A stretch of DNA of 32,000 nucleotides from Candidatus Saccharimonadota bacterium (GTDB lineage: Bacteria > Patescibacteriota > Gracilibacteria > BD1-5 > UBA6164). The translations under genes were made by a program, and so were the position numbers. Each line of letters begins with the position of its first letter. Positions within the stretch are counted from its first letter, which is position 1. This document shows, one piece after another, positions 3,831 through 20,511 of this stretch. The notes beneath the pieces are model-generated. The model made no database searches, was not told the DNA's origin, and worked only from the letters and a program-made list of their open reading frames with translations. The stretch lies in the NCBI GenBank assembly GCA_965229705.1, contig OZ245922.1:810001-842000 (forward strand), given 5' to 3'.

Positions 3831-6800
3831 ATGATTTCTCTTTGACTTGGCGTGCATTATACACATACGGGAAAATATCTTTCTCATTTGATGCTCTTAA
3901 AAGACCAGCGACATGGAAATATCCTACATGTTGTTGCTGATACCAAAGAACAAAAAAAATACGTCGCTCTCGCTGCCGACCTCAACATCGACTATATTCC
4001 TCTCCAGAGATATTCTGAGCTGCTTTCACTACATCACGGTACTGATAAAAATTGTATTTTTTCTCTTGAGATAGATTTCTTACAAAAATATGTTGATTCT
4101 AAAAATCTCGAAAACTCTCTACATATAAGTCTTTGAGACGAACAAGATCCACAAATATATATAGAAACACTTCTCACGCTTGGTTATGAGTTTCATGAAT
4201 ACGGAAAAGCATGCTCCTATAGGAAAATATGAGACCACATACGCATTATCCATGCTGATGGTCAGGAAAGCGAAATACATTTTTGGGGAAATACGGTTGA
4301 GAGTCTCTCTCATCATGGTAGCAGTGTTAGCGAGATATCGATATCTTCTTGTTTGTATCTCGATTTTTGTGAGAAAGGTATTTCACTCTTTGAATACATA
4401 CACAGCCATAATATCGTCTTTGTCTTGGACTCACTACAGTTTCACGAATCTTACAATGACTCTTGTCAGGCAGATCACTGTATCAGTTTTGATATTCTCT
4501 CTTCACCCAAATACGCATCTCAAAAACTTGATATTGCATGAATCTCTTGTAATTCTCTGGAAGAGCTGAAAAGTATTCTCTCACACAAAAAACCCAGCGT
4601 CATCTACACTCGTCTCGGAAAAACACTCAGCTCGTTTCTCGAAAACAACAATTTTCAGCATATTCCTATTTTTCATATTCACTCAGGAGTTGCAGAGAGT
4701 TTTGCTACAGAGTTTCAGAACTATATTTGTGATGATATACTAGCTCGCATCTTCGTCAAAAAACGCAGTAAGAAAAAACTCTCTTGAGATATTGATCTCT
4801 TACTCAAAATCCAAAAAGGTGACTACATTGTCCATATTGATCATGGTATTGGCGTGTTTGTCTGAATCACGCAAAGAGACCTCTCTGGAATAAAAAAAGA
4901 CTATCTCGAGCTCTCCTACAAAAACGAGGATAAGCTCTTTGTTCCGATTCATGAGGTGGGTCGGGTCACCAAATATGTGGGAAATGAACATCCCACTCTT
5001 AGTCCTCTTTCATGAAAAATATGGGAACGAAAAATGCAAAAAGTACATGAAGATATTCAGTATATTGCTCAAAATATTCTCGAAAATTTTGCAGAAAGAA
5101 AGATCAGAAAAGGAGCTGCCTGTATATATAATAGTGAGAAAATACACGCGTTTCAGTCTCTCTTTCCCTATAAATACACGCTCGATCAAGAACAATGTAT
5201 CTGAGAAGTATTTCAGAATATGCAGAGTGAAAATAATATGGACAGGTTATTGGTAGGTGATGTAGGGTTTTGAAAAACAGAGATCGCATTCAACGCGGCA
5301 TATCTCGCGATGGAAAACCATAAACAAGTATTTTTTCTCTCTCCTCTCGTCGTTCTTGCTCACGAACACTATGAAAAAGCTCTTGAGAGATTTGAGGGTT
5401 CAGGCTATAAAATAGCTCTTTTGACTCGTTTGCAGTCTCACAGAGAATGTTCTGAAATCATCAAAGATCTCGAAGAGGGAAATATACACATGTTGATTGG
5501 TACGCATCGTCTCTTATCTGAGAAAATACGCATGAAGAATCTTGGCTTGTTAATCGTCGATGAAGAACATAAATTTGGAGTCTGAGATAAAGAGAAGATC
5601 AAGTCTATAAAATCCGAGATAGATATCCTCTCACTATCAGCGACTCCTATACCTCGCAGTCTCCATCTCGCACTCTCTGGAGTGAGAGATATCTCACTGC
5701 TTAAGACTCCTCCAAGTGGCAGAAAGAGTATTGAGACGAGTGTCCTCGAGTACAATGAGCAGGTTATTTTTGAGGCAGGGAAGAGAGAGTTTGCGAGATG
5801 AGGACAGATATTTTTTGTCCATAATCGTGTCCAAAATATAGAAGTAATACAAAAACGTTTGGAATCTATTTTTCCAAAAAAATCAATTGTCATCACGCAC
5901 GGGCAACTCCCAGGAGAAGAACTTGAGATGAGAATACTCGATTTTAAAGAGCAAAAGTATGATATACTCTTATCAACAACGGTCATCGAAAATGGAATAG
6001 ACTTTCCCAATGTGAATACTATTTTTATTCATGAGTGTGAACGGTTTTGAATCTCACAAATTCATCAGCTTCGTTGAAGGGTATGACGATCTGACAGACA
6101 GGGATACTGTTACATGCTCTATAAAAACAATGCTCTCGATATTGATGCAGGAAAGAGGTTGCAAACACTGGTTGATTATAGTTATCTTTGAGCAGGGTTT
6201 GAGCTGGCAATGAAAGATTTAGAAGTTCGTTGAGGAGGAGATATACTCTGAATTCGTCAGAGTGGAAAAGCTCAAGAAATAGGTATTTCTCTCTTTTTAA
6301 AAATGCTTGAGGAAAAGATCGAAGAACTCCAACAGAAAAAAAGTACTCCCCAAAATACTCCAAAAACTCCGCTCGTATCTCTGCAAAAGGTTCGTATTTT
6401 ACTGGATATTGAGACGCTATGAGGAGCTGATGTGTTTTACTCGGATACTGATAAACTTCAATTTTACAGAGAACTCGAGCTGATATCTACAAAAGAAGAT
6501 ATTGACTACCTGGAGCTCAAAACCATCTGAGAATCAGAAAATTGATCAGAGTCGAGTTCTCTCAAAAATATTTTTCGTCTCCTGCGTCTCAAGTACGATG
6601 TTTCACTTTTTCATATCCTGCAAATCAAAAAGGTATGAGACTCTTATCAAATAGATTTTCATCCTGAGAGTACTCTGGAGGACCTCAGAGACTTTCTCAT
6701 GCATGATACACAGACATATTTTCGTGTTATCACTCCTCATCGTATACGAGCATGCAAGAAAGACTTTGCAAATGACCAATTATTTATAGAATACTTGTCG

Positions 6801-6842
6801 TCTTTTTCGAGAAGACCAAGTAGGTGTTCGACCCGGGAGTAA
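3831..6842 (+). CDS. mfd: transcription-repair coupling factor
   Basis: A single frame of about 1000 codons is open under code 25. Motifs seen: DYIVHIDHGIGVF, KLFVPIHEVGRVTKYVG, MDRLLVGDVGFGKTEIA (Walker A Gly is TGA at 5271-5273), DEEHKFGV, LSLSATPIPRSL, and a C-terminal TRG/D7-like region. ATG 3831 is the first ATG after an in-frame TAG. Stop is TAA at 6840-6842. Confidence 0.92.
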
Positions 6843-6885
6843 CATGCTACCATATTATTTTTCCCGGAAAGTGAAACATTTGTAC

Positions 6886-7461
6886 ATGAAAAACATACAT
6901 ATTATTCTGTGTCTTCTCTGCATCGCTGCTCTGACGAGTTGTAGTAGTGTAGATACAAAGACATGAGCAGAAAATCTTTCTGCGTGAGTTTCAGAAAACA
7001 ATATATCTCCTAATACAACACAAACTATGGCAAAAGAAGTAGTCAGTAGTGGCGACCAAGTAGAGGTTCATTATGTGGGAACACTGGAAAATGGTGAAGT
7101 ATTTGATAGTTCTCGAGACAGAGGACAAACACTTGGGTTTACTGTAGGAGCAGGTCAAATGATCTCTGGTTTTGATGCTGGAGTTGTGGGGATGAAGCTC
7201 TGAGAAACAAAGACGCTCACACTGAGTCCAAGTGAGGCGTATGGTGAGCGTGCTGATACAGCTCAGCAAACCGTCCCAAAAGCAGATCTTGCGAGTTTTA
7301 CTGCTGCAGGGTTTACTCTGGAGGTATGAGAGGAGCTTCCAACGCAGATGGGAAATTTCCCTATTATTGCTGCTGATGAAGAAACAATAACACTTGATAT
7401 GAATCATCCTCTTGCAGGAAAAACACTGATATTTGAGGTAGAGATTATAAAAATTCAATAA
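6886..7461 (+). CDS. SlyD-like FKBP-type peptidyl-prolyl cis-trans isomerase, predicted lipoprotein
   Basis: The N-terminus MKNIHIILCLLCIAALTSC has a lipobox-like signal. It is followed by VEVHYVGTLENGEVFDSS..GFTVGAGQMISGFDAGVVGMKLGE..DMNHPLAGKTLIFEVEI, an FKBP fold with an insert-in-flap segment. Stop is TAA at 7459-7461. Confidence 0.85.
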
Positions 7462-7542: not shown

Positions 7543-7652
7543 TTGAAGAAGACTCTGAGAAACTCATTCTTTCTCTCCTTTTACAAAAGAGAGATGGCTC
7601 GATAGAGAGAGAGAGGATTAGAAATTTTTTGTTTTTCAGAGCTTCCTGAAAG
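7543..7652 (+). repeat. MITE-like structured repeat, copy 2 (complete)
   Basis: Left end is ttgaagaagactctgagaaa. Right end is tttttcagagcttcctgaaag, which is its inverted complement type. The conserved core is ctctccttttacaaaagagagatggctcgatagag..agagaggattagaaatttt. It lies between two convergent terminators. Confidence 0.85.
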
Positions 7653-7686: not shown

Positions 7687-7725
7687 AAAAAAATACCCTT
7701 ATGAAAAATCATAAGGGTATTTTTT
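7687..7725. terminator. bidirectional rho-independent terminator (ends the S-layer gene)
   Basis: A 12-bp perfect stem pairs atacccttatga (7693-7704) with tcataagggtat (7709-7720), with a 4-nt loop. It is flanked by an A-run on the left and ttttt on the right, so it works on both strands. Confidence 0.85.
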
Positions 7726-7751: not shown

Positions 7752-10700
7752 CTAGTCTTTATAATATTCTCCAAAATCGATAACATTCTCATTTGTTGAA
7801 GTGAATTCTTCACCAGTATCCACTGAACCATTACCATTCATATCAACAAAGAATGTAAATCCATTCTTTTTCACTCGTAACTCTTCATCAACTGCACCTA
7901 CCTTAAAGGTAAAAGAGTCACTGTTATTTATTTTTGCAAGAGCAAGATTAGCTGTAGTACTAATATCTACTGTTATGATATTATCACCCGTATCTGTAGT
8001 AGTTGTTACTGTATCATCATCATCGTTTCTTACATCCACAGAAGCTGTAAGTGCCTCTGCTGATACACTTGAGAGATATAGGTCATCGTCATCAAGTTCG
8101 TTTGATCCGAAGTTAACAGAGAATCTCGCTGTTGCATATTCATCATTTTCTCCGAGACTATCTGTGTTAGATACCGTAACGATAACTGGAACAATTTTGA
8201 TGGTTTCACTTGTTGTAGCAGCAACCGTAAGATTGTTATCTGCTGAGCTATAAGTGTCATCAGAGTCTGCTCCCTCTACATCAAGAGTTGCATCATCAAT
8301 AGAGATAGTAACATCTCCGAGTTGAGCTGTTACCTCATCTCCCTCAGTTGTATACTTTGCAAGATCTGCAACAAGGTTTGCCTCAATGAGATCGTCATCA
8401 TCAGAAACTGTGAAGTCTTCAAACTTGATCACTGTATTGTTTCCATCATATGTTACTACTCCTCCACTTGCGAGAGTTTTAGAACCACTCATGATTTTTA
8501 CATCACTGAAAGTATCAGAGAAATCTTCTCCACCAGATGATGTAACAATAGCGTTTGAGATAGTAAAATCAACACCTGCCTCAGCAGCAGTAATTTCGAT
8601 AACTCTTCATGATACTGTTGCAGTAGTAATACTATCAACAGCAGCAATAGCAGTAGCAAAAGCTGCAAGAGTTGTGTCATTATCTGTATCAAATGCTTGA
8701 GTGATACGAGTATCATCAATAGTCGCAGCTATTGTATGACCGTCTACAAGATCAGCATCAGTTGTAATAGTTTTTACTGCAGCAACTGTACCGCTAGCAT
8801 CAACTCCTGCTTGATTTGGAGTAACAGTACTTACTTCAATAGAAGATTCTTGACTTCCATTAAATGTTGGATTATTAAGAGTGAATCCTGTACCTTCTAC
8901 AGCAGCTGTTACCGTAATCTCTTCACCATCAACCTCTGCAGTAGCGATTCCAGCTTCACTCGCTATAGCTGTAGCAAAGTTTTCAAGACTTGATCCTGAA
9001 ACAGCATTTCCATCTACATCTATACCAAGTGTTCCTCCACTATGGAGATTGCTTGGAACAGTGATTTGCATTACTTGAGTTTGCCCCGCAGCTTCAGAAA
9101 CATTTTCAGTTGTTGTAGCAACTGTAACATTTACTGTACCTGCTGAAGCTCCACTTGGGATATTAAACTTGAGTGTTTTTACATCAGCATCTTCGTATTC
9201 TGCTTCCATCTCAAGTTGTGCAAGCACTACTGAGTTAGAACCTGCGAGAACAGTTGTTTCGAGGTCATCATCTGTATCATCTGCACCAAGAAGTTCTATA
9301 CTAAATTTTCCGTTTCCTCTAAGAGTTGTTGTAGTATTTTTTCCTCCAGAGATGTTATCAGTACTTACTGCTTCTCCATCAGAGTCTTCAAGAGTGATGT
9401 TTGATGAGATAAGTTGCATAATGAGAGTCTCGTTATCTCCAACACTATCATCATCTTGGAGTACTGCTGTTACGAGTAACTCTACATTATCAGATCCTGC
9501 AGCAACTACATGGTTGATAGAAGTAAAGTCTACAGAGTCTGCATCAATATCAGCGTCATATGTTTTTCCACCAATATTGAGTGTTGCAGAGTCAATCACA
9601 TCATCAAGGTCTACAGAAATAGTTGCGTCACCACTTTCAGTAAGGCTGAAGTCTTCGATAGTGACACTATCAGAGTCTCCTGTAGAAACTTTACCCTTAT
9701 AAAGCACTGTTTCCACACCATTTCCAAGAACAAGCTCTCTATCGTTGATAGATGTTTGAGAAAGCTCAAAAGAAGCTGTTTGTACATCTATAGATACATC
9801 ATCAAATGAATTTGTAGAAAGGATATCATCTACATCATTTGTTCCTCCGTCTGAGTAAGTGATGTTATTTTCATCATCTTCGATTTCAGTTACCTTTACT
9901 TGAAAAGTTACTGTTTTTCCATTGAGATCAACATCATTTACAACATCAAACTCAAGAGGAAGGACTTTTGTCACTCATTTTGCAAGAGCGATGTCCTCAA
10001 ATACATAGTCTGATCCGTCATTAGAGTCAAATGACTGACCACCAAGATGAAGGTCATCAACAGCATCAGTACCAGCAGTACCTCCAACTGTAACGGTAAT
10101 CTTTGTTACTTCATAGTCATTTGAGTTTGCTGTAAGTTCTAATGTTCCTACAAGTACATCACTCACGTCTACTTTTGTATCATCAATATCTGAGTGGTCA
10201 AATACTGCGTCGATTTCAGCTCCTTCAATAGTTTCAGGATCAGCAACATCAGCGTCTTCAGGAGAGTTACCATCAGTAAATCCAACATTAAATCCTGTAG
10301 AAAGACCTGTAGCATATACATCATCTATTCCTTCAAACTCAAAGTGAACATCTTCAGTAACATCACCAGAGATAACACCGTGAAGCTCAAACTCAACATC
10401 TTCGTCAGCTTCAAGTACATAGTCAATATTCATTACGAGTTCATCGTCAGAGTTGACCATCATACCTCTTTTAATAGTTTTTCCATCAGCTAAAAGAACA
10501 AGGTCTTCTATGTATTCAGCATCTACTGAACCATTTTGATGAAGAGTAATAGATCGGACAAGAACATCCTCATTATCATTTTTCTCTTCTATAGAGAACC
10601 CTGCAAGTTTTACTTCTTCTCCTATAGTAACAGTATCAGAAGCAGTGTCTGCATCTATTTCAAGTTTTGCAGAGTTAGCAACTTCTGTAGGAGTAAGAGC

Positions 10701-11825
10701 AGCACCTATGATACCACCACCTTCTACATCAGTACTTGCCTCAAGAGCTACAAGCTCGATTTGGTAAGTTGTATTTGTACTTCCAGTATCACTGATAGTT
10801 GCAGAAACAGTAAATGTTTGTGTTTCTCCAGCTTGAACAACTACATCTCTATCAAAAGAAAGATCAAGATCGTTGTCTGAGAAATTTTTTGTTTTTGATA
10901 CAGACTCATTTGATGAGTTATATATAGTAACATCATCAACATTGTCTTTATCACCAAGACCTACATGAAGGAATGTTGCTTCCTCAAGAGTGACATCTTC
11001 GCTTCCAGCAGTAACATCAAACGCGAGCATCGCAACACGAGGAGTGTTTACTGCAGCAAGTCCATTTGATGGAGACTGTGGAGAAAGAGAAACCATTGCG
11101 TTAGAACTTCCGAAGATTTGAGCAGCTTGTTCAGCTATCTCTTCAGCTACTTCTTCAGTAGCTTCTTCTTCATCCTCCATTTCTTCCTCAGCTACTTCTT
11201 CAGATCCGTCATCACAGATACCAAGAAGTTCACAAAGAGGGTCTTCAGCAACAGTGCTTGTTTCTTCTTCTTGAGCAACATTGAGAGCTTCAGCAGCCCA
11301 AATGAATACTTGCCCACGAGTAACATCAGTGTTATAATCAGAGAAAGAAGAAGTGATGCCAGCAGCAACTGCCCCATCAACTCTTGCAGCCATCCAATCA
11401 GAACCCTGTCCTGTAGCTATATCCTGTGCTTCCATAACCCATTTTAACGCTTCTATCTTAGAAGTGTTACTTTTTGGGTTGAAGTAGGTATTTGATGCAG
11501 CATATCCTGCACCATTAAGCGCTGCAGCATATTTTTCCGCCCAAGAAGCGAAATCAGCGTCAGCGTACACACTTTCAACATTGCTTACTGCAAGACCTCC
11601 AAGGTTTGCAATAACCTTTGAGAGCTCTTCTCTCGATATAGTGTCTCCAAGTCTGTAATCCGCAGGATTCGCAGAGTTGTCGACAATAAACCCGAGAACA
11701 GCGAGCTCGTTTGCTGCTTGCAAAGAAGTGTAAGCAGCTGATACTCCAGCTATTGGTGTAAACATAGAAAATACTATGGCTAAACCAGCAATAGCAGAAG
11801 TAACTTTTTTAGAAAAAGTACTCAT
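7752..11825 (-). CDS. giant SLH-domain, highly acidic S-layer / cell-surface protein (1357 aa)
   Basis: Track ORFs 9975..11864, 8607..9974 and 7752..8492 share one frame, joined by TGA at 9975-9977 and 8607-8609. The 8493-8606 gap has no stop. ATG 11823-11825 gives the signal peptide MSTFSKKVTSAIAGLAIVFSMFTPIAGVSA. Three SLH-like motifs follow (AANELAVLGFIV..DTISREELSKVIANL; FASWAEKYAAALNGAGY..; DWMAARVDGAVAAGI..TRGQVFIWAAEAL). Next comes an EEEMEDEEEATEE linker and about 1100 aa of D/E/T/S/V-rich beta-repeat-like sequence. Stop is TAG at 7752-7754. Confidence 0.85.
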
Positions 11826-12079
11826 AACTATATACGAGTTACAAAAATAAAAACAATTCACCACAACAATGGACGGTTAAAGCCTTAACCCTAAGCTGTT
11901 ATGCGCACAACTAGGGAAGATGAGGGACAAGTATCTCTTATTCCTCCTCTCCCATAGTTCTACGATATATCAGCTTGAGTTGCGACCTCTATTGAAACAT
12001 AAGCAAGGAAGATATTTCTTGCCTACTCATATATTTTCGAATAGATGTTAAAGATCGGCATATCGCGCAAAACATCAAC

Positions 12080-12107
12080 ATCATATAAAAAGAATATCTG
12101 AAATCAA
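12080..12107 (-). promoter_or_regulatory. candidate sigma70-type promoter for the S-layer gene
   Basis: On the minus strand: TTGATT (12107-12102), a 16-nt spacer, then TATGAT (12085-12080). It would give a 5' leader of about 250 nt. This is a consensus match only. Confidence 0.3.
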
Positions 12108-12217
12108 GCAGGAGTATGGCTATTTCACAGAGTCTTCACATAGATTTTTCTTCCTTCATACAATCTTCACATTATCATCCGCGTCATATAACTATGGATT
12201 AGAGGTCTTTCTTGGGT

Positions 12218-12326
12218 CTTGAGCAGGCTCTGAGAAACTCTTTTTCTCTCTCCTTTTGCAAAGAAAAGATAGCTCGATAGAGCCAGAGAGGTTGAGAAAT
12301 TTTTCTCTTTTTCAGAGTCTTCTTAA
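12218..12326 (+). repeat. MITE-like structured repeat, copy 3 (complete)
   Basis: Sequence is cttgagcaggctctgagaaactc..ctctccttttgcaaagaaaagatagctcgatagagccagagaggttgagaaattttt..tttttcagagtcttcttaa. It sits 28 nt downstream of the brnA stop and upstream of the S-layer gene. Confidence 0.85.
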
Positions 12327-12354
12327 TTATGTGAAGATTGAGTGAAGAGAAAGA

Positions 12355-12666
12355 CTATCGTTCGATAATATCTCCGTTAGCAAATTGATGAAGTACTGAG
12401 CTTACAAGTGTTTGATATGGAATACCTTTCTTTTGCGCGAGAGTCTTGAGACGGGAAATATCCCTGCGTTGAAGACGAAATGTCACTGATTTTCTCTGCT
12501 GGCTTAGTTGTAAATCTTGTTGCCATTGTTTATTGAGATGGACAACCTCATCTTTTGTAGGAATTATGACGTCGCCTTTTGTTATTGCCATATCCATAGT
12601 CTCCATAATTTCACGCTCCTCATCATCAAGATAAGGGGCATCATAACGTATTTTTGTTCTATCCAT
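12355..12666 (-). CDS. brnA: BrnA-type antitoxin (C-terminal ribbon-helix-helix)
   Basis: Intact 103-aa ORF. The C-terminus SVTFRLQRRDISRLKTLAQKKGIPYQTLVSSVLHQFANGDI matches the BrnA/CopG-like pattern. It overlaps brnT by 8 nt. Stop is TAG. There is no in-frame TGA. Confidence 0.8.
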   Translation of the reverse strand: MDRTKIRYDAPYLDDEEREIMETMDMAITKGDVIIPTKDEVVHLNKQWQQDLQLSQQRKSVTFRLQRRDISRLKTLAQKKGIPYQTLVSSVLHQFANGDIIER

Positions 12667-12949
12667 GATAATTTTTATTACAATATAACTTCATCGATTT
12701 GCGACTCGCATACAAGGTTTTTAAGAAAATTCCTTGTTCACTTTTTACATAGGGAACATTGAATACATAGCCCTCAATCAAAACTATCAACATTCTTTGA
12801 TGAGGATATTTCTCATGTAAGTGATGAGGCACATCTGCTATGACATTTCCCTGTAATATTGCAGATTCTACATCTTCAAAGCATACACCCCTCTCTCTTT
12901 GGAGAACCCTATTCTTGTTCGCACTCCATGTAATCTCTCCATAATTCAT
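12659..12949 (-). CDS. brnT: BrnT-family (DUF497) ribonuclease toxin
   Basis: Intact 96-aa ORF. ITWSANKNRVLQRERGVCFEDVESAI fits the DUF497 signature (W..K...N..KHGV.FEEA). The C-terminal ..IFLKTLYASRKSMKLY also fits. Stop is TAG. There is no in-frame TGA. Confidence 0.75.
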   Translation of the reverse strand: MNYGEITWSANKNRVLQRERGVCFEDVESAILQGNVIADVPHHLHEKYPHQRMLIVLIEGYVFNVPYVKSEQGIFLKTLYASRKSMKLYCNKNYHG

Positions 12950-12993: not shown

Positions 12994-14163
12994 CTACGAA
13001 TTCGTCACACTATCAGCAAGATTCATAATTGGTTGCATGATTGCCATAGCGATAAATCCCACTACCACCGCTAAAAATATGATAATAAAAGGTTCTAAAA
13101 GCTTGTTCATCGTACTAGCAAGAGTATCCACCTGATCATCATAAAAATCCGCTACCTTGGTAATCGTCATATCGAGTTTTGCCGACTGTTCTCCAACCTG
13201 CACCATTTGTATCATGATATTAGGAAAGAGGGGATCTCCCTCGAGTGATTCCCATATCTTCATTCCGCGTCGAACATCCTCTAGTAAGAGCAAGATTCTT
13301 TGGCGATAAACCTCATTTCATACAGCATCAGCAACAATCCTCAAAGACTCTACTACCGAAACTCCCGAACCCATGAGTCCCGCAAATACGCGAGAAAATT
13401 TTGAGAGTGTTACCTTTTGTACTACTCCTCAAAACACTGGAAGTTTTAAAAGTATGAGATCAAAATTGTATTTTCATGAAGGTGTTTTTTTCCAAAATAT
13501 CACGGCAAAATACAGAAGAAAAAGAAATATCAAGATAAAATGCCAATAATTCACAAATATATTTGAAGCTCCTATAAGAAACTGTGTTGTCGCTGGAAGT
13601 TCCGAAGCATCATCAAATATTTCTAAAAGTTTTGGTACCACCATAGTCATCATCACAAAAATCACTCCTGTTACCACTACCATAATCATGAGAGGATAAA
13701 TCAGTGCTGCCTTGAGTTTTCCTGTAACAGAAGAAACTTTTTCTACCTGATCAGCGAGAGAGATCATCACTTCATTGAGTCTTCCTGTTTTTTCTCCTGC
13801 TCGAATCACTCACAGTTCCGCATCACTAAAACTTCCCGCATATACCTCCATACACTCTGAAAGCGTTTTTCCCTCTTTGATTCCCGCAAGCATCTCTCAC
13901 AGCATTCTCTGAAATACTGGATTTTTTTCTTGATCTTCCAGGACAGAAAGACTTTTCATAATACTCATTCAGGCATTGAGCATGGTTGCCATGAGTCGAT
14001 AAAATAACAGTTTTTCTTTGGTCTTGATTTTTTGAAAAGAATAAAGGAGCTCATTGAGTCTCGCATAAAGACTGGGAGCGTTTTCTTGAGATTTTTCATC
14101 TTTTGTGTGAAGACTTTGTGAAGACTTTTTTTCATCTTCGGCAAGTATGATCAGATCTTCCAT
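12994..14163 (-). CDS. pilC: type IV pilus / type II secretion platform protein (GspF/PilC family)
   Basis: Track fragments 13969..14163, 13474..13809 and 12994..13293 are in one frame. The gaps were checked codon by codon and contain only TGA. Two GspF-type repeats are present (..AGMSIMKSLSVL..IRAGEKTGRLNEVM.. and ..AGLMGSGVSVVESLRIV..VQVGEQSAKLDMTI..), plus three membrane helices. Stop is TAG at 12994-12996. Confidence 0.88.
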
Positions 14164-14181
14164 GATTCTCAGAGTTAAAAA

Positions 14182-15462: not shown

Positions 15463-16698
15463 TTATTGGAGTAAGAGTTGTATTTCTTCAAGAGCCGTTC
15501 TCTGACGATCAAGAACTCCTTGTAAGTCAAAAGCTGTATCAAACGTTGATTCTATATCTTCTTTCTTCACAAAGTTTTTACGCAAGGCTTTCATGTCTCC
15601 CTCCAAAGCTTCTATCAAACTTTCTAAAGAAGCCAGTTTTCATACTGCTCGAAGTTGTTCACCGTTGGTGTATTGTGAAAGGTTTTTTTGATATGTATTA
15701 TGAGCTATTTTTATATCTTTTCGAAGCTTCTCAAAATCCGTGAGAGACTTGAGTATTAGCTCTTCCATCTGATATCCAGGGATACCAGAAACATAAAAAA
15801 TCAGAGATACATCTATACTCATCCTCTCGCTTGCCTGTGATCTTTTTAGTACAGATACGAGAGGAAGGTTTTGTGAAACACTTGAAGAGTCTGGGTATTT
15901 GAGCATTCATAGGGAAGTGATTTCTCAAAAATGCCCTTTATATACATTCTCAGAGTTTTCTCATATCTTTTTTCTGTTTAAAAATGCGTCCTCATGCAAT
16001 ACTAGATCTTCTCAGAGTACATTGATACTTCAAACATTTTCAAAATAATGGAGAAAGTCGATGATGTCTGTTTTTCTTCCGGAGAGAGAAAATTTTAAAG
16101 GAATCTGAAATATATTTTCTGAGAGACTTGAACTATTTTGAAATCCTTCTCTGTCTATATTTTCTATATTTCCTACTCCTATTTCTCCGTCAAAATTGAG
16201 ATTAAAACTGTAGAGGATTTGCTCTATATAATTGGTAAAATCAAAGTTACTCAACTGCGTTTTTTCTCTTTGTGAAGATACAGAATAATATGGGAGAATC
16301 TTGTTAAGTGTCGTATTTTTTTGTGTATACTCATAAGAATTTTTTGTTTCCTGAACACTGCGAGACACGCCATCAAGAAACTCTTCATAGCTGCCTGATC
16401 CAGTGTTGCTAAAGTGCTCATGAAAAAAGTCTTTTTCCAGAACTGATACAAGCTTTTTCTCATATACATCTTGCGTATTTTGCTGCATAAAAGACAGATA
16501 CGCGTCATAGTCTATTCACTGTTTTTTCAGATCTTGAGAGTATGTATAGAGTTCTTGAAAATCTGTTTTGTGCGACTCTATCTCTGATATTTTTGGAAAA
16601 ACAAGTATGAAAAACATTCCTAAAAATACGATACATATCACTGTATTGATAGCCATTGACTGTATAAGAGAGGATTTCGTTTGTGGAGAGAGTTTCAT
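15463..16698 (-). CDS. hypothetical single-pass membrane protein of the pilus operon (411 aa; PilO/PilN-like by position and topology only)
   Basis: Track ORFs 16516..16698, 16030..16488 and 15640..15906 are in one frame, joined by TGA at 16516, 16030, 15907 and 15640 plus others. There is an N-terminal TM helix (AINTVICIVFLGMFFILVFP) and a coiled-coil-like C-terminus. Stop is TAA at 15463-15465, 9 nt before the pilB start. Confidence 0.65.
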
Positions 16699-16711
16699 CT
16701 TTTTGTAAAGG

Positions 16712-17560
16712 TTACAATGCTAAATCGTGAGAAATATACTCCAGCTCCAGCTGGAAACTTGTCTTTTGTGTATAGGGCGATTTTTGACTCTGGCTATAGC
16801 TAAGGTTTTCTGTTTTTGAAAGAAGAATAAATGGTGAATCATCTGCATTTTCAATATAATCCATAAAAGCGCTCGCTCTTGTAATAGAGCTTCCCTCAAA
16901 GTTATAGAGTAATACCCCATTTTTTAGTCCAGCAATGGCCGTATCCCAGTCTGAAGAATAGGCATCACAGCTGATACGCATCTTAGTACTGTCAAAAAAC
17001 TCTATGTCATAGCATTGGAGCTCGCTTTTATCAACCGGTGAATAGGTGTTTTTTAAGGTATCAAACTCCTGAAGTATTGTGAGTGGGCGCATTCTTTCTG
17101 CTGATCGTTCGAGGAGAAAGAGTACTTTTTTTGAAGAGTGAAAGTTTTCTAAGCCATATAGTTCTGAAAGGATGGGAGTAATGTTTGATCCCTGAGTATT
17201 TTTTTGTATTTCTATATTGTTCAAAACTTCTTGGCGTGATCCATAGAGGTTATGACATGATCATCCTGCATACTTTTCATATACATCTCATAGAAATACC
17301 TGGCAAAAAGGAGAGAGAAAGTTATAGGTCTTTTTTTCTTCTTGGGTTTGAATGAATATATATGTATACGCAAAGAGAAGTGTGAGAAGTAATATAATAT
17401 TCAGTGAAGTAAAAAATCTGCTACTATAACTGAGATAGTCATACAGTTTTTCTTCTTTTGAGGGGTTTTGTATATCTTCTTCTCACTGATCTTGCTGAAA
17501 ATCATCAAATATATTTTCCGCATGAATATCATTTTTTGGAGAATTTTCTTCTGAAAGCAT
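16712..17560 (-). CDS. hypothetical single-pass membrane protein, first gene of the pilus operon (282 aa)
   Basis: Start is ATG at 17558-17560. The N-terminus is acidic (MLSEENSPKNDIHAENIFDDFQQDQGEEDIQNP). One TM helix follows (FFTSLNIILLLTLLFAYTYIFI), then an extracytoplasmic domain that corresponds to track ORF 16712..17224. Stop is TAA at 16712-16714. Confidence 0.65.
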
Positions 17561-17597
17561 AAAACTATAAAAATAAGGAAGTATTTTTTGGTGTTTC

Positions 17598-17694
17598 TTT
17601 AAGCAGGCTCTGAAAAATAGAAATTTTCTAATCCTCTCTGGCTCTAACGAGCCATCTCTCCTTTGAAAAAGGAGTTTCTCAAAGGTTCCTTAAG
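17598..17694 (-). repeat. MITE-like structured repeat, copy 4 (inverted orientation, about 12-nt internal deletion)
   Basis: The reverse complement reads cttaaggaacctttgagaaactcctttttcaaaggagagatggctcgttagagccagagaggattagaaaatttctatttttcagagcctgcttaaag. It lies between the dinG stop (17757) and the pilus operon start (17560). Confidence 0.85.
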
Positions 17695-20402: not shown

Positions 20403-20511
20403 TTTAAGGAAGTTCTGAAAAACTCCTTTTTTCTCTCCTTTTGCAAAGGAGAGATGGCTCAATAGAGCCAGAGTGGATTGGAAAATTTTCGTTTCTCAGA
20501 GGTTCCTTAAG
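20403..20511 (+). repeat. MITE-like structured repeat, copy 5 (complete, best terminal inverted repeats)
   Basis: Left end is cttaaggaagttctgaaaaac. Right end is gtttctcagaggttccttaag. The core is ctctccttttgcaaaggagagatggctcaatagagccagagtggattggaaaatttt. An extra partial end motif tctctgagaaag follows at 20514-20525. The whole copy lies inside the 3' end of the pseudouridine synthase ORF. Confidence 0.85.

Follow-up and report, generated by a model that had tools for sequence, protein, structure and literature searches.

What are the three large open reading frames (ORFs) that follow one another on the minus strand of a 32,000-nucleotide stretch from a Candidatus Saccharimonadota bacterium (contig OZ245922.1, positions 810,001 to 842,000; hereafter the window), and what would their product do at the cell surface? 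Under the standard code these ORFs occupy 9975..11864 (629 aa), 8607..9974 (455 aa) and 7752..8492 (246 aa), and a preliminary description of the locus proposed that they form one frame, interrupted by two UGA-glycine codons and encoding an acidic protein with S-layer homology (SLH) motifs. The three ORFs are indeed one gene, a complete SLH-type gene at 7752..11825 on the minus strand, whose single-frame translation runs through 1357 codons to a TAG stop (7752-7754), with two TGA triplets, read as Gly, as its sole internal stops. The product is probably the principal S-layer protein of this bacterium, held by its SLH motifs and presenting a six-module acidic body as the outer layer.

The genetic code of the window was established from its genes at large. 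The coverage by ORFs of 150 aa or more rises from 10.9 kb under translation table 11 to 54 kb with TGA as a sense codon, and TGA occupies conserved glycine positions such as those of the UvrA Walker A motif 'GLSxSGKS' and the PilB motif 'VxEMRD', with many in-frame TGA codons at Gly positions in every conserved gene of the window. Given this gain in coding length and the placement of TGA at conserved glycines, the window uses code 25, in which UGA encodes Gly, as in Gracilibacteria and Absconditabacteria. The homologues of the SLH gene likewise come from metagenome-assembled genomes (MAGs) of Candidatus Gracilibacteria, while a tRNA scan of the window returned zero tRNA genes, so that no tRNA-Gly(UCA) was seen there. 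Within the SLH gene, the TGA at codon 617 (9975..9977, minus strand) has a Gly opposite it in 32 of 45 homologues, and that at codon 1073 (8607..8609, minus strand), which lies within a nested insertion, aligns with Gly in two of the five homologues that have residues there. Homologues run unbroken over both sites and have the N-terminus MSTF.KKVTSA in common with the SLH gene.

Some database records of this family show a different reading of the same codon. The homologues P0008, P0040, P0021 and others carry W where their relatives carry G ('TAATAWTD' against 'TAAEAGVD'), and these entries appear to have been translated by code 4 rather than code 25. Among the entries named 'S-layer homology domain-containing protein', some are truncated and some have W at the TGA positions.

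The encoded protein is extremely acidic and poor in basic residues, as had been claimed, with 11.6% D, 7.9% E, 2.9% K and 1.1% R and an isoelectric point (pI) of at most 4.05, the floor of the calculator. Its first ~29 residues (11739..11825, minus strand) form the putative signal peptide noted earlier, with a basic n-region, a hydrophobic core and a VSA|AY site read by eye from the sequence; the peptide is kept across the family, and residues 1-30 have a predicted local distance difference test score (pLDDT) below 50 in a homologue model described below.

The signal peptide is followed by three diverged SLH motifs at aa 31-186 (11268..11735, minus strand), the proposed cell-wall anchor, identified by a family profile, the Pfam matches of relatives and the homologue model. 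Taken alone, the N-terminal 155 residues of the target score below the threshold of the Pfam SLH model (PF00395; 15.5 bits, E = 0.018, against a cut-off of 20.8 bits), and the match becomes clear at the level of the family, where Pfam SLH is found in 33 of 42 relatives (best E = 3e-9) and distant relatives carry three canonical SLH stretches each, with E down to 3e-33. Compared with solved structures, the family profile aligns with the three-SLH trimer of Paenibacillus alvei SpaA (6CWC/6CWM) over ~130 residues and all three motifs at E = 7.8e-9, and with the SLH region of Bacillus anthracis Sap (3PYW/6BT4) at E ~1e-5. In the alignment, the family's R65-x-E67, SKIE (E125) and TR170GQ fall on the TRAE, TVEE and TRAQ of SpaA, and at these positions the residues R65/E67, E125 and R170 are invariant or conserved to 90% or more. 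The N-terminal 185 residues are the best-conserved region of the protein, with D89, W95, N112, E125, F161, R170 and F174 invariant, and residues 34-186 of the modelled homologue form seven helices with a pLDDT of ~90. The profile matches to SpaA and Sap, the alignment of motifs and the Pfam matches of 33 of 42 relatives thus identify the anchor, on sequence grounds, as a true but diverged SLH triplet.

Between anchor and body lies an acidic disordered linker, aa 187-241 (11103..11267, minus strand), delimited by composition, conservation and the homologue model; it holds the poly-Glu run that had been reported (35% Glu at residues 200-240) and an LCxLLGxC motif. This conserved two-Cys motif, with the consensus 'DDLLCxLLGxCDD', is located at 11220-11250 on the minus strand (aa ~193-203) and contains the sole two cysteines of the SLH protein; a loose pattern for it matched 42 of 219 family proteins.

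The structure of the remainder was modelled with AlphaFold on P0001, a homologue of 1128 aa that is ~69% identical to the target, from an alignment of 82 rows. The model (mean pLDDT 88.7) is helical at 34-186, disordered at 186-218 and all-beta from 220 to 1128, and its predicted template modelling score (pTM) of 0.50 indicates that no compact arrangement is predicted. The beta region was split into six modules, the family profiles of which were compared by hhalign. M1 to M5 proved mutually homologous (probability 91-98%, E from 1e-13 to 8e-7), while M6 reached a probability of 48-85% against M1 and M2 and was not significant against M3-M5. On the minus strand, the beta-sandwich modules correspond to M1, aa 242-372 (10710..11102); M2, aa 373-522 (10260..10709); M3, aa 523-668 (9822..10259); M4, aa 669-820 (9366..9821); M5, aa 821-1193 (8247..9365), which bears the nested insertion; and the divergent C-terminal M6, aa 1194-1357 (7755..8246). 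The repeat-like character attributed to the body in the preliminary description is thereby borne out, as is its expectation that a structure prediction would contain beta-sandwich repeats, here in the 69%-identical homologue.

The same description had suggested Big, CARDB or DUF11 domains, and these were not found: no Pfam family matched the body, either in the target (E <=1) or in the 42 family members scanned (E <=0.01). NCBIfam gave zero matches for the body, and a body-only profile had zero matches among PDB sequences at E <=10. When the P0001 model was compared with the PDB by Foldseek, only generic multi-Ig/MG proteins were returned, including the Ig-like domains of PrgB, alpha-2-macroglobulin, complement and integrin legs, with TM-scores of 0.1-0.2 and 8-11% identity.

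The family to which this body belongs is large. A search of a large protein database identified 82 homologues, most of 1116-1165 aa and a few of ~1350-1400 aa, many of which have a precomputed SLH match or are called 'S-layer homology domain-containing protein' by NCBI. Against a library of 1.84 billion proteins, the body-only profile recovered 3225 clusters (50% identity), and for 1054 of these E is <=1e-30; lengths almost always fall within 1100-1470 aa, and the aligned region begins around residue 220-260. The interquartile range of length for 166 full-length members is 1148-1250 aa and their median pI lies at the calculator floor, and such a narrow spread of length and uniformly low pI are what a lattice subunit, not a variable-repeat adhesin, would show. 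The architecture of SLH motifs, linker and fixed six-module array is that of an anchor plus a multi-domain assembly region.

A distant member of the body family, P0187 (L049 10001-14377), is encoded in a genome of 44% GC that uses the standard code, has a textbook set of three SLH motifs and contains no in-frame TGA, which serves as a stop in that genome; the body family therefore extends beyond the recoded lineage. The P0187 gene adjoins glycosyltransferases and an ABC-2 polysaccharide exporter.

The nested insertion of module 5, at aa ~890-1100 (8526..9158, minus strand), was delimited by homologue alignment and a low-confidence model. Its ~210 residues, seated in an M5 loop, are missing in ~40 of the 45 closest homologues and constitute an internal duplication, suggested by modelling to consist of two Ala/Thr-rich beta-beta-alpha-beta-beta units. 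Other long members carry unrelated sequences at this site, which marks it as a variable insertion hot-spot, and a clear homologue of the insertion is present only in P0008. The model of M5 with the insertion was made on P0008 from six alignment rows and has a mean pLDDT of 58.7; a fold search with it returned nothing below E = 0.01, and a homology search with the nested insertion alone gave zero matches. In L001 (5963-6454) and L004 (14973-15488), the long, insertion-bearing homologue has a Y1-type (IS200-like) transposase gene immediately downstream.

An indirect indication of how much of this protein the cell may make comes from codon usage. TGA accounts for two of the 102 Gly codons in the SLH gene and for 196 of 512 (38%) in the rest of the window. 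Six genomes were compared in this way, and in the five others (L001, L002, L004, L005 and L006) the gene has 2/96, 0/103, 8/95, 0/95 and 0/85 TGA codons among its Gly codons, with 25%, 22%, 72%, 55% and 25% in the flanks. The effective number of codons (Nc) of the SLH gene, 37.8, is the lowest in the window (neighbours, 43-57), its GC content at third positions (GC3) of 0.20 lies under that of every neighbour (0.26-0.46), and CTT, GGT, GCT and ACT are preferred, with raised ATC, AAC and TTC. In contigs annotated with the standard code, the SLH gene is accordingly the only long intact gene, with shattered neighbours. TGA-Gly avoidance together with this bias implies that the gene would be very highly expressed. 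The pattern returns at a single syntenic position in genomes with proteins of ~27-70% identity, and translational selection on a very abundant protein fits it best. The earlier suggestion of a major envelope protein gains support from this bias, the strongest in the window, and from the avoidance of TGA-Gly in all six genomes.

The sequences flanking the gene contain dedicated expression signals. As described before, it has its own strong bidirectional terminator, an intrinsic hairpin at 7688..7725 (minus strand) flanked by an A-run and a T-run and reading, on the minus strand from 7725 to 7688, AAAAAATACCCTTATGA-TTTT-TCATAAGGGTATTTTTT. The upstream non-coding region, previously put at roughly 500 bp, measures 529 bp by gene layout (11826..12354, minus strand). 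The leaders of the six loci have two conserved blocks in common, one promoter-like and one with a hairpin. The promoter-like block has the consensus TTG-N16/17-TAT(A/G)(A/T)T with GTGAAGA/GTGAAA repeats before it, and in the window a consensus scan places TTGATT-16-TATGAT at 12080..12107 (minus strand), the position of this putative promoter implying a transcription start near 12072 and a 5' untranslated region of ~245 nt.

The second block, CCC-hairpin-GGGTTAAGGCTTTAACCGT, was located by a covariance model at 11862..11925 (minus strand), 37-100 nt ahead of the ATG. A single position of GGGTTAAGGCTTTAACCGT varies, between C and T; the motif could form a hairpin, GGTTAA-GGCT-TTAACC, and another potential hairpin precedes it. 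A search of 596 Gb gave 42 exact matches to the 18-nt motif, against a chance estimate of ~35 assuming uniform composition; 21 of the 42 lie in Gracilibacteria-type MAGs, and 18 of these 21 are followed, at a distance of 32-70 nt, by an ORF starting MS(T/L/N)(F/L)xKKVTSA.... The covariance model finds exactly one strong leader copy per locus (47-84 bits), and besides the window the element is present in at least 23 loci (L001-L048), in each ahead of an SLH-family gene. Covariation was no better than in shuffled controls, in both the sequence-based and the model-based alignment, and the idea of the leader as a structured RNA was dropped; with covariation not significant, the leader is treated as a conserved sequence element with hairpin potential and not as a proven RNA structure. 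An Rfam scan of the window returned no family. It is tentatively suggested, with doubts outweighing confidence, that the leader element, a nearly invariant stretch of 19 nt with hairpin potential that is present only ahead of this gene, in genomes with proteins as little as ~27% identical, is a lineage-specific site of post-transcriptional control and, separately, that the purge of UGA-Gly marks a poorly decoded codon. The element might be bound by a dedicated regulator, or by the SLH protein itself.

Comparison with characterised surface-layer proteins gave sequence matches for the anchor and none for the body. SbsB of Geobacillus stearothermophilus (PDB 4AQ1) is anchored to a pyruvylated cell-wall polymer by an N-terminal SLH triplet and continues with six Ig-like domains. 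SbsB, of ~1000 aa, and the target are alike in their signal peptide, SLH triplet, six beta-sandwich domains and acidity. Their bodies have no detectable sequence similarity, SbsB lies outside the top 50 fold matches, and the target, unlike SbsB, has a long poly-Glu linker, a far more acidic composition and a domain nested in module 5. SbsB is a lattice former with Ca2+-dependent ring closure, while the target is known here from its sequence and a homologue model. Sap and EA1 of B. anthracis are S-layer proteins that are anchored by SLH motifs and assemble through six beta-sandwich domains; Sap resembles the target in its N-terminal SLH (E ~1e-5) and its multi-beta-sandwich body, whereas the bodies of Sap and EA1 are not homologous to that of the target by sequence, and genetic code, lineage and leader element all differ. 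The SLH trimer of SpaA (6CWC, 6CWM) is the best solved-structure match, over 130 residues and for the anchor only, and the target's SLH motifs have diverged below the Pfam threshold. Further counterparts are NCBI-annotated Gracilibacteria SLH proteins such as P0025, P0029 and P0064, true homologues of 37-49% identity with the same architecture and genomic position, which are annotated by their SLH domain alone, with no function, structure, expression level or body family described.

In the mechanism proposed for this protein, a code-25 Gracilibacteria-type bacterium without an outer membrane would export it by the Sec route, and after cleavage of the signal peptide the three SLH motifs would fold as one trimer-like domain holding the protein to a pyruvylated wall polymer. 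The poly-Glu linker may keep the body at a distance from the wall, allowing the six-module acidic body to self-associate as an outer layer, possibly with Ca2+ bridging its many Asp residues, and exposing the variable domain of module 5 to hosts and phages. The long leader would support high and stable expression. SLH-domain proteins and an expected or observed S-layer have been described in the lineage (PMC6851277, PMC13293708, PMC13059738). In an aquifer metaproteome, a Gracilibacteria SLH-domain protein has a Sum of 106 (PMC11452946 Table S8), with AtpD at 125, RpoB at 88, HU at 75 and most other proteins at 1-10 in the same table (PMC11452946).

Several points weigh against an assignment as principal S-layer protein. 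Lattice assembly, the abundance of this particular protein and CsaB with its pyruvylated polymer are all inferred, with no CsaB-like gene in the 32-kb window and no paper on CsaB or pyruvylation found in the literature on the Gracilibacteria lineage. The structure comes from the homologue P0001 and not from the target, whose own SLH score stays under the Pfam threshold and whose full-length scans of Pfam and NCBIfam give zero matches; the body profile matches nothing among PDB sequences, and no solved S-layer body appears among the top Foldseek matches, the TM-scores of which are low. Relatives encode 8-10 SLH proteins per genome (PMC13059738), so another of them could be the main layer protein, and the metaproteome entry, listed without a sequence, may belong to a different SLH family.

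The alternatives differ widely in how well they account for the locus. A reading as three distinct genes, or as a pseudogene cut by true stop codons, is hardly conceivable: table 11 does list three ORFs, but conserved genes throughout the window are full of in-frame TGA at Gly positions, the homologues continue through both sites with Gly prevailing at position 617, and neither the second nor the third ORF has its own start-site context, both starting mid-module. It is very improbable, too, that TGA is scarce because the gene was recently acquired horizontally from a bacterium with the standard code, and not because of high expression. The occurrence of the body family in a standard-code organism (P0187 on L049) and the copies of an intergenic repeat flanking the gene would suit such an origin, yet the depletion is seen alike in six genomes at the same syntenic position despite protein identities of only ~27-70%, the GC3 lies below that of the neighbours with a bias towards A/T-ending codons that suits an AT-rich genome, the leader element is conserved across the lineage, and two to eight TGA-Gly codons are present in some members.

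A more serious contender, though still an unlikely one, is an SLH-anchored fibrillar adhesin or host-contact stalk, in which the six modules would form a rod projecting the nested domain to the host of an episymbiont. The best bacterial Foldseek matches are Ig-like arrays of adhesins and pilins (PrgB 8BEG, Streptococcus gordonii C123 7L0O and Saf 5Y9H), the insertion site is hypervariable between genomes, pilus genes lie alongside in all loci examined, the pTM of the model predicts no compact arrangement, and host contact has been proposed for SLH proteins of the lineage (PMC13059738). Set against these observations, the number of modules is fixed, the modules are old and divergent, with homology detectable at the profile level only, length is tightly conserved, and the nested domain is absent from most of the closest homologues, so that the features of a tandem-repeat fibrillar adhesin are not found. 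In fibrillar adhesins the repeats are usually near-identical and vary in number, with an adhesive domain at the distal end. The extreme codon bias and TGA avoidance further suggest bulk structural abundance, and the roles of lattice and adhesin can coexist. Fixed module number, old divergent modules and the signals of bulk expression favour, though they do not prove, a lattice protein over an adhesin.

The genomic setting of the SLH gene is largely conserved. In five other loci the order is MurB, RluB, DinG-like, two unknown genes, PilB, PilC, the SLH gene, an FKBP lipoprotein and Mfd. The locus had been described as sitting directly next to a type IV pilus operon; pilus genes are indeed nearby, with PilC at 12994-14181, but a toxin-antitoxin-like pair intervenes between PilC and the SLH gene, consisting of a CopG antitoxin at 12355-12666 (minus strand; E = 2.4e-7) and a DUF4258/BrnT-like toxin at ~12664-12949 (minus strand; sub-threshold match). 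This insert occurs in this genome only, the other loci having a plain intergenic gap of 310-400 bp. A functional link to type IV pili was considered and found unsupported, the conserved order also holding MurB, RluB, a DinG-like gene, Mfd and QueA; because the block contains such unrelated housekeeping genes, no specific tie to pili is argued. The two conserved genes upstream of pilB, at 15463-16719 and 16712-17689 (both minus strand), have no Pfam match; their counterparts in L004 and L005 hold the same position and encode proteins of 283-285 and 433-469 aa, and the two could be divergent components of pilus assembly.

On the other side, convergent to the SLH gene, lies a gene for an FKBP-type peptidyl-prolyl isomerase at 6790-7461 (plus strand; E = 1.6e-26) with a lipoprotein-like signal (…LTSC), kept at that position in L001, L002, L005 and L006; the isomerase may assist folding outside the cytoplasm. 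The window also has five copies of an intergenic repeat of ~108 nt that contains a pair of adjacent hairpins, four on the plus strand (1391-1498, 7543-7650, 12218-12325 and 20403-20510) and one inverted (17584-17674). Two of the copies bracket the SLH gene, and at 20403 the RluB frame enters the repeat. None of the other fetched loci contains its core, and the repeat therefore looks like a genome-specific element resembling repetitive extragenic palindromic (REP) sequences or miniature inverted-repeat transposable elements (MITEs).

S-layers have been seen or predicted on the cells of Gracilibacteria and Absconditabacteria, and it is already known that S-layers are expected, and SLH proteins listed, in the lineage; in the literature found on it, no paper names the SLH protein that builds the layer. 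The present analysis singles out one specific family, conserved, syntenic and apparently very highly expressed, as the likely source of the main layer protein, and adds its domain map, a signature of UGA avoidance and a dedicated leader element. The body represents a large family, with more than 3000 clusters at 50% identity, that has no Pfam, NCBIfam or PDB entry, and the SLH family offers a target for fitting in cryo-electron tomography, for antibodies, for studies of host and phage interaction and for a new domain model. If the leader is a control site, its regulator would couple surface-layer synthesis to growth, and if UGA is poorly decoded, UGA density could read out expression level in code-25 genomes. 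Owing to its near-absence of UGA, the gene is called intact by standard-code pipelines and can thus serve as a marker of the lineage in metagenomes annotated with the wrong code.

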